DNA from: a virus
Taxonomy: Duplodnaviria > Caudoviricetes
DNA: 32,287 bases
Virus record (IMG/VR): IMGVR_UViG_3300020045_004733
Location: 1-32,287 of that record
Direction: 5' to 3' (one strand)
Below the pieces are notes generated by a model. That model was not told where the DNA came from and ran no database searches. It saw only the letters and a program-made list of their open reading frames with translations. Made by a program: the position numbers and the translations under genes. Of the stretch, positions 9,817-31,112 are shown one piece after another (the first letter of the stretch is position 1; each line of letters starts with the position of its first letter).

Positions 9817-11103
9817 ATGTTTTCGATTATTATCCCCATTTTCAACCAGCACGACATGACCGAGGACTGCATCACAGCTATCCGCGAATGCACGCAGGAC
9901 TGTGAAATCATCATCATTGACAACGGATCAACGCCCCCCTTCAAGGCCCCCTTCACCGGGGATATTGAGACGCGGGTGATCCGGAACGAGGAAAACAGGG
10001 GCTTCCCGGTGGCAGTAAATCAGGGAATCCGGGCGGCGAAGGGCGAGACGATCATCCTTTTAAACAACGATGTGGTGGTGACTCCGGATTGGGCGGCCCG
10101 GCTCGAAAGCCATATCACCCCTCTTATCCTGACGCAGCAGGAAATAAAAGATGGGTTTCAGGTTGGCGGCGTTCCTTTGTCGATCGTCGGCCCGCTGACG
10201 AACTATGCCGCGGGCCTTCAACGGGCGCAGATCGCTGACTATCAAAACAAAGAGGAACTTTACAAAGAAGCCTCTGCCCTTTCCGAAGAGCAGGCCGGAG
10301 AAGCGGAAGAGGTCAACTTCGTCATCGGATTCTGCATGGCCTTCAAGCGGTCCCTCTATGACGAGATCGGCCCCTTTGACGAATCCCTGTGGCCATGCTC
10401 CGGGGAAGAGATTGACTTTTGCCTCCGGGCACGGGCGGCTGGCCATAGGATCGGGATTGCCCATGATGTCTATGTCCATCACGAGGGTTCGCAGACGTTC
10501 AAGATCATCGATGCCGACTATGACGCCATTGTGAAGCGAAACGACGCCCACCTTGCCGAGAAATGGGGCGCGGACTTCTGGCAACGTCAAGCGGTTGTGC
10601 CGGCCTGCGAAGGGGTGCGGCTCAACCTTGGGTGCGGTCCTTTTCCGATGCAGGGATTCACGAACGTCGACCAATTTCCAGAGGTCAACCCGGATCTCGT
10701 TTGCGACATAACGGCCCTGCCGTATGAGCCCGGAACGGTCAGTGAGATTTACGCCGGGCATGTCCTTGAACACTTCATGTTTGCGGACGGCCAGAAGGCC
10801 CTGCGCTACTGGCTGACCCTCTTGAAGCCGGGCGGATTGATTAGTGTCGTGGTTCCTGACTATGATTTTCTCGTGAAAGAGTACGTCAAGAACATGACCC
10901 CGGAAAAGCTGATCGAGTTCAACGACACCTATATTTACTCGGGGATTCAGCCGTCGCCGCACCTTTACGCATACAGCGCGGCCCTCCTTGAGAAGTGCAT
11001 GGCAGAGGCGGGCTTCGCAAACATTGAGCGGATGCCGGTCAACCATCCCTATTTCCCCTTTGCTGTCGATTGGCAATGCGGGTTTCAGGGGGTGCGGCCG
11101 TGA
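9817..11103 (+). CDS. GT2 glycosyltransferase fused to C-terminal class I SAM methyltransferase
   Basis: GT2: SIIIPIFN, IIIDNGS, NRGFPVAVNQG, LLNNDVV, EEIDFCLR, VHHEGS. MTase: LNLGCG, GFTNVD, HVLEHF, LKPGG. Confidence 0.93.
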   Translation: MFSIIIPIFNQHDMTEDCITAIRECTQDCEIIIIDNGSTPPFKAPFTGDIETRVIRNEENRGFPVAVNQGIRAAKGETIILLNNDVVVTPDWAARLESHITPLILTQQEIKDGFQVGGVPLSIVGPLTNYAAGLQRAQIADYQNKEELYKEASALSEEQAGEAEEVNFVIGFCMAFKRSLYDEIGPFDESLWPCSGEEIDFCLRARAAGHRIGIAHDVYVHHEGSQTFKIIDADYDAIVKRNDAHLAEKWGADFWQRQAVVPACEGVRLNLGCGPFPMQGFTNVDQFPEVNPDLVCDITALPYEPGTVSEIYAGHVLEHFMFADGQKALRYWLTLLKPGGLISVVVPDYDFLVKEYVKNMTPEKLIEFNDTYIYSGIQPSPHLYAYSAALLEKCMAEAGFANIERMPVNHPYFPFAVDWQCGFQGVRP

Positions 11104-11771
11104 AAATAAGCAATCAGAAACTGGCAATCGGCATCCCCTGCACGTTCCCGCTTATCCCGGATGGCTTCTTCTACTCCTACGCCCTAATGGAAAAGCCGGA
11201 GCATGTCTTTATCCATGCCGACAACGGGCCGATTGATACCTTGCGGAACGACATCGTTAAAAAGGCTCTGATGGCCGGGGCTACAAGATTGATCATGCTT
11301 GACGTGGATATGATCTATCATCCCCAGACAATCACGCGGCTCCTGTCTCACAAGTTGCCGGTGGTTGGTGGCCTGACCTTCCGCCGATATCCACCTTTTG
11401 ACGCCCTCATGCTCAAGGTAAAACCGATCAATGAGCATGTCAACGGCTATGAGAGTGTAGAGGAATGGGGGAAAAATGAACTGATCGAGGTGGACGCGAC
11501 CGGGGCCGGGTGCCTCATGTTCGACATGGAGATTTTCAAGAAGATGCCGCGCCCGTGGTTCCGGTTTCAGAAGCAAGAGGAAACGGGGTCCGTCATAGGC
11601 GAAGACATCGGATTTTGCCAGGAATTAAAGGCGGCAGGATATCGGATCTTCGTTGATACCTCCATCCCTTCGGACCATCTGACAAGGATTGCGGTAAATG
11701 AGGCGACGCACCGCCTTTATACGGCGTGCAAGAGCGCACAAGCGGCAAAGGCCGCCCTCGCGGGCGGGTAG
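11100..11771 (+). CDS. GT-A fold glycosyltransferase (GT2-like)
   Basis: GTG start overlaps the upstream TGA. RNDIVK, MLDVDM (DxD), VDATGAGCL, GEDIGFC, GYRIFVD. Confidence 0.85.
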   Translation: MKISNQKLAIGIPCTFPLIPDGFFYSYALMEKPEHVFIHADNGPIDTLRNDIVKKALMAGATRLIMLDVDMIYHPQTITRLLSHKLPVVGGLTFRRYPPFDALMLKVKPINEHVNGYESVEEWGKNELIEVDATGAGCLMFDMEIFKKMPRPWFRFQKQEETGSVIGEDIGFCQELKAAGYRIFVDTSIPSDHLTRIAVNEATHRLYTACKSAQAAKAALAGG

Positions 11772-25937: not shown

Positions 25938-25965
25938 AGGATACCACCGTTATTTTTAATGTCAA
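25938..25965 (-). promoter_or_regulatory. leftward sigma70 promoter (PL-like)
   Basis: TTGACA-16 nt-TATCCT with extended -10 TG. Confidence 0.65.
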
Positions 25966-26019
25966 GAATTATTTTCTCATATTTTGAGCATCGGGCATTT
26001 TATTTCAAGAAAGTTCCTC

Positions 26020-26048
26020 TTGACTTTATAGAAACCGGGTGCAATAAT
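26020..26048 (+). promoter_or_regulatory. rightward sigma70 promoter (PR-like)
   Basis: TTGACT-17 nt-AATAAT with extended -10 TG, ending 8 nt before ATG 26057. Confidence 0.6.
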
Positions 26049-26056
26049 CCTCAACT

Positions 26057-26248
26057 ATGAAAATAAATACAATCAGACTGGAAAAAGAGCGCAAGCGCCG
26101 CAAGCTGACAAGGGAAAAGTTTTCCGTTCTTTTCTCTCTCCATCCAACAACTTACGGAAAAATCATTAAGACACAATCAACGACCTTTAAGCGGCTATCT
26201 CAAATAGCAGATAGTTTAAGGATCAATCCAAAGCTTTTAATCGAATAG
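26057..26248 (+). CDS. Cro/XRE-family HTH regulator
   Basis: 63 aa. LEKERKRRKLTREKFS...TTYGKI...LSQIADSLRINPKLL is a typical XRE pattern. Confidence 0.8.
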   Translation: MKINTIRLEKERKRRKLTREKFSVLFSLHPTTYGKIIKTQSTTFKRLSQIADSLRINPKLLIE

Positions 26249-26317
26249 ATATCTGATATAGGGGCTGGCTACCGGAAAAGACGCCCCTCAAATCATGTTG
26301 AAAAACAGGAACCGACC

Positions 26318-26836
26318 ATGAACAAGCCCACAAAGGAACAGATCCTGGAATCCATCGCCGCCGGAATGAACGTGAAAGAACAGGCGAAGCATTTCGGCAT
26401 CGGGCTGAGCGCCTTGATGTTGAGGCGGAAAAAGTTTGGCATTTCGGGGAAGGAAGGCAAGACGGGCAGGAAAGTGGGGTCAGCGACTATTGACTACACG
26501 ACGATTGACGCCATGCTTAAGGATCAAGACAAAACAATGCCGGACATAGCAAAGGAAGTTGGGTGCTCATGGATGTGCGTGCGGAATCGGTGGTTAAAAA
26601 CTCATCCGGGGACAAAATATAAGTGCCTGTCACGAGGGACCAACCACAACCGGATCACGCCGGTCAACCTCCTGGGGGCAATGGGATACAATTACGCCGA
26701 GGAGTTGGAAAAGGATTTTCACCGGCTTCACAGGGCGACGTTTCCGTGTGTCCCTTGGGACAAGTTCCGGGCGGCGATCCATGAACTTTGTGCGAGGGGG
26801 ATTAATCCGCTGGCGGGAAATGGGAGGGTGGCGTGA
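26318..26836 (+). CDS. double HTH DNA-binding protein
   Basis: GMNVKEQAKHFGIGLSAL and TMPDIAKEVGCSWMCV. Confidence 0.65.
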   Translation: MNKPTKEQILESIAAGMNVKEQAKHFGIGLSALMLRRKKFGISGKEGKTGRKVGSATIDYTTIDAMLKDQDKTMPDIAKEVGCSWMCVRNRWLKTHPGTKYKCLSRGTNHNRITPVNLLGAMGYNYAEELEKDFHRLHRATFPCVPWDKFRAAIHELCARGINPLAGNGRVA

Positions 26837-27969
26837 ATGAACTTAGCCTATTCACAGGCGCAGGCGGCGGCCTCCTCGGTTCCCTCCTTCTTGGACATAC
26901 CCCAATCGGATACTGTGAGTGGGACGATTACTGCCAGCGAGTCATTGCCGCCCGAATCCGTGACGGAATCCTGCCCGACGCCCCTATCTTCGGCGATATC
27001 AAAACATTCATCAGTGACGGGTACGCCGCAAGCTATGCGGGGCTGGTTGATGTCATTACCGCCGGTTTCCCTTGCCAGCCGTTCAGTGTCGCCGGAAAGC
27101 AAAAAGGAGCCGACGACGAGCGGAATATGTGGCCGGCAACGGCAGAGTGCATTGGAATTGTGCGCCCCCGATTCGTTTTGCTTGAAAACGTGCCGGGAGT
27201 CCGTACCTACCTGCCCGTGGTTGTTAGAGACTTGCGCCGACTTGGGTATGAAGTTTCAAGACCCCTCCTCCTTGGGGCTGACGATGTTGGGGCGCCGCAC
27301 CGAAGGAAACGGGTGTGGATACTTGCCAACAGCACAGCAGCGGGATTATCGGAGTCCAGACCTTCCGGGATCGGTGAATTACGAGCGGAAAGCGGCGAAG
27401 GGATGGACGATAGACCTGAACAGCAAGATTGCCTTACTACCAACCCCCCGGAAGTGCATGACGGGCGATATTTCGGAAGAGCGGAAGGCAGACAGGTTCA
27501 ACAATCTGGAAACGGTATTGAGCAGAGAATTACTTCCGACTCTGAGCGTTACCACGACAGGAGGACCGACGGGCCTTTGCGGAGGATCGGGGAACAGGAA
27601 GAAGTTCAACAGAATGTGGGGGCAACTCCCCACGCCCCGAGCCGAGAAGCATACCCCGCAGAGCCGGGCGGACTTCACGCCGAACCTTGCGGCGAGGATT
27701 CAGGAATTGGCCCCAACCCCTTCCGCCTCAATGGTGACAATGCAGGACTTCGTGCAGGCGAAATATCACAGTTCCAAAAGGCCGAAGTATTCGGAGGTGA
27801 TGCTGCCGACACCGAACATGATGGACGGAGGGAGCAAGGAGACGCACAGGGGCGAGGGAACGAGGCTGAAGCTGTTGGGAGCGGTCAGTGGACAGAGCCG
27901 TGGCCTGAAGTTGCAGCCCGCCTTTGTGGAATACATGATGAACTGGCCGGAGGGGTGGACGGCACTTGA
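26833..27969 (+). CDS. C5-cytosine DNA methyltransferase, alpha chain (motifs I-VIII)
   Basis: SLFTGAGG (I), GFPCQPFS (IV), ENV (VI), HRRKRVWI (VIII). Lacks motifs IX and X. Confidence 0.9.
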   Translation: MNELSLFTGAGGGLLGSLLLGHTPIGYCEWDDYCQRVIAARIRDGILPDAPIFGDIKTFISDGYAASYAGLVDVITAGFPCQPFSVAGKQKGADDERNMWPATAECIGIVRPRFVLLENVPGVRTYLPVVVRDLRRLGYEVSRPLLLGADDVGAPHRRKRVWILANSTAAGLSESRPSGIGELRAESGEGMDDRPEQQDCLTTNPPEVHDGRYFGRAEGRQVQQSGNGIEQRITSDSERYHDRRTDGPLRRIGEQEEVQQNVGATPHAPSREAYPAEPGGLHAEPCGEDSGIGPNPFRLNGDNAGLRAGEISQFQKAEVFGGDAADTEHDGRREQGDAQGRGNEAEAVGSGQWTEPWPEVAARLCGIHDELAGGVDGT

Positions 27970-28156
27970 ACCCCTCCCCCTGGAAAGCATGGAAAAATGG
28001 TTATCAGGAACGACATGGGATGAACCGTGGCCCGACGCAGCGCAGCGGTTGTGCCAAGCCGGAAACGTTTCGGATAGGGTGAATCGGCTGAAGGCGTTAG
28101 GGAACGGGCAGGTAAGCGTAGTGGTTGCAACAGCATGGAGGATTTTAACGCAATGA
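26837..28156 (+). CDS. C5-MTase beta chain in overlapping +1 frame (LPTP repeats, motifs IX and X)
   Basis: Six LPT(P)-type repeats, LQPAFVEYMMNWPEGWT (IX-like) and RLKALGNGQV (X). True start uncertain. Confidence 0.8.
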   Translation: MNLAYSQAQAAASSVPSFLDIPQSDTVSGTITASESLPPESVTESCPTPLSSAISKHSSVTGTPQAMRGWLMSLPPVSLASRSVSPESKKEPTTSGICGRQRQSALELCAPDSFCLKTCRESVPTCPWLLETCADLGMKFQDPSSLGLTMLGRRTEGNGCGYLPTAQQRDYRSPDLPGSVNYERKAAKGWTIDLNSKIALLPTPRKCMTGDISEERKADRFNNLETVLSRELLPTLSVTTTGGPTGLCGGSGNRKKFNRMWGQLPTPRAEKHTPQSRADFTPNLAARIQELAPTPSASMVTMQDFVQAKYHSSKRPKYSEVMLPTPNMMDGGSKETHRGEGTRLKLLGAVSGQSRGLKLQPAFVEYMMNWPEGWTALEPLPLESMEKWLSGTTWDEPWPDAAQRLCQAGNVSDRVNRLKALGNGQVSVVVATAWRILTQ

Positions 28157-30722: not shown

Positions 30723-31112
30723 ATGACCCTCCTCTCCCTCCTCAAACCAAAGCGGGTGAAGACCTCCCGGAAGGCCTCCCTCAAGAAGTCCCTGGACGCC
30801 ATCATTTCCCGGAAGGTCCGCGACCGTGACGGAAACCACTGTAAAAAGTGCGGCAGGACCCCCTGCTACCATCATCACATCTTCGGGAAGGCTGCACACC
30901 CTTCGACGCGTTGGGAGATCGACAACGGCGTTTCTGTCTGTTTTCGGTGCCACCGCGATGCTCACGCATCCCCGGAGGATTTTAGACGCTGGGTAATCTC
31001 CTGGATGGGTGAAGTAGAATATGAGGCTTTGTATGTAAAGGCGCAGATGAGGGCAAGTTTTAAGGTTTGCGATCTGGAATTGCTTTTGTGGGCGATGAGG
31101 AAAGCCGCATGA
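30723..31112 (+). CDS. NinG/Rap-like HNH nuclease
   Basis: VRDRDGNHCKKCG, HHIFGK, TRWEIDNG and CFRCH motifs. Confidence 0.85.
   Translation: MTLLSLLKPKRVKTSRKASLKKSLDAIISRKVRDRDGNHCKKCGRTPCYHHHIFGKAAHPSTRWEIDNGVSVCFRCHRDAHASPEDFRRWVISWMGEVEYEALYVKAQMRASFKVCDLELLLWAMRKAA

Follow-up and report, generated by a model that had tools for sequence, protein, structure and literature searches.

In a temperate phage, a single DNA cytosine methyltransferase is likely encoded as two halves by two overlapping reading frames. The window, meaning the whole stretch of DNA analysed, is the entire 32,287-base contig of this phage and contains recognisable capsid, lysozyme, integrase, ERF, YqaJ, NinB, NinG and DnaB genes. 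The methyltransferase gene belongs to a rightward operon that also includes NinG, DnaB and an HTH gene. Apart from a NinG/HNH-like gene at 30723, none of the 29 ORFs scanned was recognisable as a restriction nuclease. At 25938-26251, divergent sigma-70-like promoter matches lie ahead of a 63-aa ORF that we take to resemble a Cro-type repressor. A 747-aa ORF at 28475-30718 matches phrog_498 DNA methyltransferase with its C-terminal third (E 8e-32) and no Pfam model; its N-terminal part contains a cysteine cluster, presumably radical-SAM-like, and two or three genes may be fused in this ORF. Among the structural genes, positions 9817-11771 hold a glycosyltransferase-methyltransferase fusion and a second glycosyltransferase-like gene. 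Some 4-mers are depleted in the phage (CTAG 0.33), and no tie between this depletion and the methyltransferase was found.

The two frames, A and B, overlap by 1,133 nt, and frame B extends 187 nt beyond the stop of frame A (Table 1). The TGA of the upstream gene (26834-26836) overlaps the GTG of frame A and abuts the ATG of frame B. The sequence suggests that either of these starts may be used, and frame B has further in-frame ATGs which, counted in codons from the PC motif, lie at -12, -7 and +59. The chance of such openness was estimated by synonymous recoding with the codon usage of the same phage. Given the protein of frame A, frame B would be open with a probability of 6e-4 (0.018 for the portion up to motif VIII), and given the protein of frame B, the tail of frame A would be open with a probability of 3e-5. 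Off-frame open stretches in 13 other long genes of the phage do not exceed 117 codons. The original prediction, in which two frames stay open across a 1.1-kb overlap and divide the methyltransferase motifs, with I-VIII in frame A and six LPT(P) repeats plus IX and X in frame B, is borne out by these figures and by the features found, the labels IX and X being based on weak profile matches.

Table 1. Features of the overlapping methyltransferase frames in the window.
Feature	Position	Strand	Description
Shine-Dalgarno-like GGAGG	26823-26827	+	5 nt before frame-A GTG, 9 nt before frame-B ATG
Frame A (alpha chain)	26833-27969	+	GTG to TGA, 378 aa; catalytic core and ~210-codon tail
Frame B (beta chain, +1)	26837-28156	+	ATG to TGA, 439 aa if the first ATG is used
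Alpha core, motifs I-VIII	26833-27330	+	FTGAGG 26851-26868, PC 27070-27075, ENV 27184-27192, RKRVW 27304-27318
Conserved beta N-terminal block	27145-27255	+	overlaps alpha motifs VI-VII; alpha fourfold third positions skewed to fixed beta residues
Six beta modules	27320-27890	+	starts 27320, 27434, 27530, 27623, 27707, 27800
Copy 1, frame A, pre-X WTEPWPEVAARLC	27889-27969	+	13 codons intact, then degenerate
Probable motif IX, frame B (LQPAFVEYMMNWPEGWT)	27911-27961	+	same bases as copy 1; weak profile match
Beta linker helix (LEPL...W)	27962-28015	+	register shared with the C-terminus of X-on-A beta chains
Copy 2, frame B, pre-X WDEPWPDAAQRLC...VSDRVN	28016-28084	+	third codon positions saturated versus copy 1 and donors
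Probable motif X, frame B (RLKALGNGQV...AWRIL)	28085-28147	+	weak profile match
Putative native 3' end	28120-28152	+	32/33 nt identical to displaced gene end in L091

The match of frame A to PF00145 (E 1.8e-31) is confined to residues 2-177, and the frame aligns with M.HhaI residues 15-170. It possesses the PF00145 C5-cytosine methyltransferase hallmarks in motifs I, IV (PC), VI (ENV) and VIII. Residues P80, C81 and E118 are invariant across 89 aligned rows and the catalytic residues of the window gene are all intact. Frame B matches phrog_1008 'DNA methyltransferase' (E 4.7e-13) and no Pfam or NCBIfam model, so chains of this kind are overlooked by annotation. Motifs IX and X were assigned to it from position, order, weak profile matches and the published HHpred result for gp6 of mycobacteriophage Corndog. 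Compared with 58 ordinary methyltransferases, both align weakly with the right motif in the right order, IX with E 0.008-0.04, above 20/20 shuffles, and X with E 0.01-0.2. Beta profiles gave no match to PDB sequences and no relevant Pfam family. Beta residues 99-439, modelled alone with AlphaFold, reached a pLDDT of 54, and a Foldseek search with this model found nothing. The C-terminal 103 residues alone reached 77, and Foldseek and VIA searches with that model gave nothing above Z 2.4; a fragment modelled partnerless may lose its fold. Motif IX contains MNWP (27938-27949) in the window gene and in two other loci with long alpha tails and X in the beta frame, L045 and L174; elsewhere it is mostly MGWP, with the N variant in 21 of 122 stored proteins.

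The six modules of the beta chain open with YLPT, LLPTP, LLPTL, QLPTP, LAPTP and MLPTP at a spacing of 28-38 residues, in the places where six LPT(P) repeats had been predicted. The proposal that these repeats are modular is supported by units common to several phages and by related sequences in which whole units are absent in frame. Module 1 is 62-71% identical to units in five homologous loci (L001-L005), module 2 is 45-48% identical to units in L028, L029, L040 and L093, module 3 has a match in L019, and module 5, judged by eye, resembles units in L174 and the beta protein P0102. In sequencing run X1, two contigs of related genes lack 114 nt and a net 210 nt with both frames kept; the missing stretches are exactly unit 1 and units 1-2, in sequences of 85% likeness and hence from relatives. 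By analogy, the modules may be target-recognition units, as suggested by their position between motifs VIII and IX and by the precedent of Bacillus-phage enzymes. No match to known target-recognition domains was found by profile comparison with PDB sequences or by Foldseek. In the beta frames of L019 and L023, module-like inserts occur between IX and X, a position open only where X lies in frame B. The IX-linker block is repeated in P0022, and many modules are present in P0095, a beta chain of 958 aa.

A two-frame layout characterises a whole viral gene family and is not an error. We compared the best 80 of 599 confirmed viral loci, near-duplicates included, from a scan covering about half of the collection, and classified their layouts by motif profiles built from clear members. 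Motif IX lies in the +1 frame and X in frame A in 66 loci (X-on-A), both lie in the +1 frame in 10 (X-on-B), and four are unresolved; a single-chain layout or IX in frame A occurs in none of the 80. Dual-frame conservation in homologs, proposed as a check, is seen clearly: from PC-35 to PC+88 the +1 frame is open in 73 of the 80, near-duplicates included, against 5.4 expected, and the +2 frame in none. The same +1 openness is found in 8 of 80 C5-methyltransferase loci from bacterial genomes, four of the eight being members of this family. A search with the C-terminal 103 residues of beta gave 1,431 clusters at E <= 0.001; among 151 stored proteins, 120 have IX and X without catalytic motifs, 27 have X by pattern only, three lack X by pattern and one has catalytic motifs. 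The C-terminal part of this last protein, P0090, a singleton from one contig, is almost identical to the two-frame beta chain P0102. P0090 thus reads as an indel version, and a natural single-chain class was rejected.

The core of the window gene belongs with genes of the opposite layout. In a quick maximum-likelihood tree of 92 alpha cores (SH-aLRT support only; Corndog and the four unresolved loci excluded), the 12 X-on-B rows require 8 label changes, at least 5 of them forced by well-supported branches, and these changes may be new origins or transfers. The window core nests with six X-on-A rows (98% SH-aLRT), its nearest neighbour being L010 at 87%, and it is 86-88% identical to the cores of the X-on-A loci L010 and L091. 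The alpha chain of another X-on-A locus, L047, matches M.HhaI in motifs IV-VIII only. Across nine truncated X-on-B relatives, the 827 old-frame codons contain 41 stops; frame A of the window gene has none in 190 (P about 8e-5), and L045 has none in 151. The tail of frame A is likely a vestigial linker.

Two copies of the pre-X/X segment lie in opposite frames of the window gene, where a diverged duplicate had been predicted. WTEPWPEVAARLC (27889-27927, frame A) and WDEPWPDAAQRLC (28016-28054, frame B) are identical at 9 of 13 residues and 127 nt apart (42 codons plus 1); none of 20,000 shuffles reached the score of the pair. Copy 1 hits a stop at the point where relatives continue into motif X. 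In L213, L214/L215 and L216, which we found by pattern search, the copy-1 segment does continue into an intact motif X in frame A, with the pattern W..(P/D)WPEVAARLC-RV.DG common to this source group. Copy 1 matches L214 at 12 of 13 residues and 36 of 39 nucleotides. Copy 2 shares 9 of 13 residues with each of copy 1, L214 and L216, with 9-11 of 13 third positions changed. The closeness of copy 1 to L214 and the equal distance of copy 2 from all three indicate recombination, and the window gene is probably a recombinant rather than the product of a fresh duplication. A recent duplication in cis had at first been considered from the score of the pair (63, against at most 44 in 555 frames) and was dropped after closer donors were found. 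The original prediction that X moved from the alpha to the beta frame by duplication therefore stands in part. The gene does contain, for a second time, a segment found in frame A of relatives, and because this extra copy must have arisen at some time, duplication holds in kind; as a recent event in this gene it does not, the copies not being sisters (L214, 36/39 nt).

Copy 2 may have branched off earlier and escaped dual coding, and copy 1 may owe its first half to recent input from the X-on-A pool. The gene would then be a mosaic of a native core, imported modules with an IX-linker-preX cassette, and a native end; the +1 reading of 28120-28152 still gives the X-on-A beta C-terminus, WLQQHGGF-stop. 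The broken X copy in frame A and the intact copy in frame B probably represent a snapshot of a segment changing chains. In L091 (1417-1978), an ORF that is HNH-like by its motifs follows the methyltransferase, with the displaced 3'-end remnant behind it; this ORF appears to be a mobile nuclease that took the place of the end of the gene.

We consider it reasonably probable that the gene encodes a two-chain phage C5-methyltransferase in which beta carries motif X and the tail of alpha is vestigial. Frame A would supply the catalytic core with motifs I-VIII, and frame B would supply six exchangeable modules and the probable motifs IX and X. By analogy with the small chain of M.AquI, beta would complete the SAM-binding fold by giving the motif X helix in trans. 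The early-operon position and the lack of a visible partner nuclease suggest that the enzyme may protect phage DNA from host restriction. A core from the X-on-A lineage would recently have gained a 3' cassette, probably by recombination, consisting of the second pre-X/X copy placed after motif IX in frame B. The modules and the first half of motif IX may have been refreshed from X-on-A genes, where both frames must remain open, and this would explain why frame A is free of stops until just past motif IX. Expression of both chains, their binding and activity, the function of the modules and the order of events we infer from the nucleotide sequence and its relatives.

Heterodimer and +1 frameshift product had been left side by side in the original prediction, and the sequence now makes two separately started chains likelier. 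A programmed +1 frameshift near RVWIL/YLPT (~27320), where YLPT is the +1 reading of WILAN, would fuse alpha core, modules, IX and X into one chain of normal motif order, and the first module does start exactly at the end of motif VIII. At this site, however, no slippery heptamer, stop-dependent site or homopolymer was found and the bases vary across homologs, frame B is open and under constraint at 25-55 codons upstream, and the shifted product of the 66 X-on-A homologs would be without motif X. The constraint is visible in the skew of alpha fourfold sites 108-138 towards fixed beta residues: in rows uncorrected for kinship, site 135 is C in 70/74 (beta P), and sites 138 and 121 are G in 68/87 (beta G) and A in 61/84 (beta Q). 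Mean fourfold entropy, likewise uncorrected for kinship, is 1.54 bits at sites 105-170 versus 1.74-1.79 before them, and synonymous divergence of alpha dips over the beta block in only two of four pairwise comparisons. Third-base entropy at four motif IV-V sites is the same in the family and in controls, and, stop avoidance aside, selection at the protein level is not seen in the first ~100 codons of beta. An open frame with selected residues upstream and no slippery site argue for separate starts, and Corndog gp6, which keeps the beta block, together with the skewed fourfold sites favours a chain started upstream. A universal beta start was not found, which would suit a frameshift: 28 of the 76 loci scored have an ATG at +4 in an open frame, and the positions of other ATGs vary. 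An ATG at the Asp codon before motif IV was rejected as evidence for a beta start, as its GAT bias is also present in controls. The Corndog authors were, in the passage on these genes, unable to exclude a frameshift (PMC4351075). On balance we regard one as very unlikely here.

The gene could also be a non-working or decaying recombinant, in which an L010-like core and a foreign cassette give chains that no longer form an active enzyme. The mosaic structure is compatible with this, as are a beta block diverged from the consensus (ETCADLG in the window clade versus ETWP.SG) and the lack of any close homolog of the whole beta chain, the best full-size matches being 47-49% identical over the C-terminal region. 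Against decay, the catalytic residues and both frames are unbroken, copy 2 keeps 11 of 14 residues of the L216 motif X region despite saturated third positions, and three sequencing runs contain this 3' segment at 99-100% identity; we hold this explanation to be unlikely. There is even less reason to think that a two-chain enzyme still needs the long A tail and copy 1, with the frame kept open by selection. Copy 1 does keep its frame-A sense at sites silent for frame B, and three of the 12 X-on-B loci (window, L045, L174) have long tails, but alpha ends within about 25 codons past motif VIII in the other nine and in Corndog. The pattern is also accounted for by recent import from X-on-A genes, and the last module of L045 has an X-on-A twin in L091. 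Least probable of all is an assembly artefact in which an indel or chimeric join made the layout. The gene comes from a single metagenomic contig and the beta protein forms a one-member cluster; no single read runs the length of the gene, and none in runs X1-X4 covers 28026-28078, which leaves the contig as the sole support for the join into copy 2. These four runs contain 5% of the window's words and represent relatives of the phage, not the phage itself, so they carry no information on its expression or habitat; no RNA run was among those listed. Three 151-letter records from runs X2-X4 match parts of 27897-28025 with 0-1 differences and have different upstream sequence. Two of them (X2 and X4, from two studies) bridge the alpha stop without gaps, contrary to the earlier caution that an indel error might merge the frames. 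A 15-nt pattern at this stop has 27 viral matches, none in a methyltransferase context, and a 23-nt pattern has none in the genome_contigs collection. Moreover, two open frames of 1.1 kb are beyond the reach of one indel, the layout recurs in 10 of the 80 homologs (best 80 of 599) and in 120 of the 151 proteins, and the copies are too diverged for a mis-assembled repeat.

Taking the two-chain enzyme with a vestigial tail as the best explanation, a wider reading is plausible, though somewhat less likely than not. A very large phage family would share a pool of ~30-residue specificity cassettes on beta and would repeatedly have handed motif X from alpha to beta, with the window gene caught mid-transfer. 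If so, the handover frees the cassettes from dual coding, and here the new X is in, the old X is broken and the frame is still open. The gene would then encode a heterodimeric methyltransferase that is multispecific and programmable by cassettes, and it would illustrate how overlapping genes separate, along a route in which the shared segment is copied, one function moves and the old frame decays. If the modules are target-recognition units, phages could vary their methylation range through exchange of ~100-nt cassettes compatible with both frames, and engineering would benefit from having specificity confined to its own small chain. The window gene and L010, with an 87% identical core and opposite layout, form a natural pair for a direct test. 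A literature search, with most subscription journals outside its reach, found nothing on a change of frame of motif X within a family or on module exchange.

The elements of this arrangement are already in print: the two-frame design in M.EcoHK31I, the partition in M.AquI and an overlapping phage example in Corndog. In the passages describing it, M.EcoHK31I (E. coli, YGGCCR) consists of two chains from one DNA stretch read in two frames, with motif IX on the alternative-frame chain (PMC2836561, PMC3404938). As far as those passages go, its partition, with IX in the alternative frame and X on alpha, is that of 66 of the 80 best homologs of the window gene, its beta lies wholly inside alpha, and X and the predicted target-recognition domain are on alpha. 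The window gene likewise has a second chain with IX in the other frame, whereas its beta is not nested, running 187 nt past the alpha stop and bearing X and six modules. No partner nuclease is seen in the window, unlike M.EcoHK31I.

Given the weak IX and X labels, the partition of the window gene equals that described for M.AquI, to which it is likened by partition alone. M.AquI (target CYCGRG) is encoded by two adjacent genes of a restriction-modification system and not by a 1.1-kb dual-coded overlap. Its large chain holds motifs I-VIII plus some of the variable region and its small chain the distal variable region and IX-X, in a passage that describes no module array, in contrast to the six modules here (PMC3404938).

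Corndog gp7/gp6 (Cluster O) belong to the same family, gp6 matching the beta profile at 99.3% in hhalign. As in the window gene, the second ORF is in the +1 frame, carries IX and X, overlaps upstream of motif VIII and keeps the beta block. In the published account, the last 53 residues of gp6 strongly match, by HHpred, the three C-terminal helices of M.HaeIII, similar arrangements are noted in other phages, two chains versus frameshift is left open, and the gp6/7 products are absent from mass spectrometry (PMC4351075). The layout is not unique but common in phages. Corndog gp7 ends right after motif VIII with an overlap of about 200 nt, whereas frame A of the window gene continues for about 210 codons, and Corndog has a single clear module, with neither a linker nor a dead copy of X between IX and X.

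The Bacillus-phage multispecific C5-methyltransferases M.SPR, M.H2I and M.phiBssHII are single chains with proven specificities. The passage on them places tandem units between motifs VIII and IX (PMC8936443). The units of the window gene are likewise tandem, and they lie on a second-frame chain instead of a single one; they are shared between phages and, as whole units, present or absent in related sequences. Special to the window gene are a core among X-on-A relatives, a stop-free 190-codon A tail and a broken pre-X/X copy. M.EcoHK31I, M.AquI and Corndog gp6/7 would thereby be joined in one phage family that switches between two partitions, and although its layout is common, the window gene would record the switch between them.
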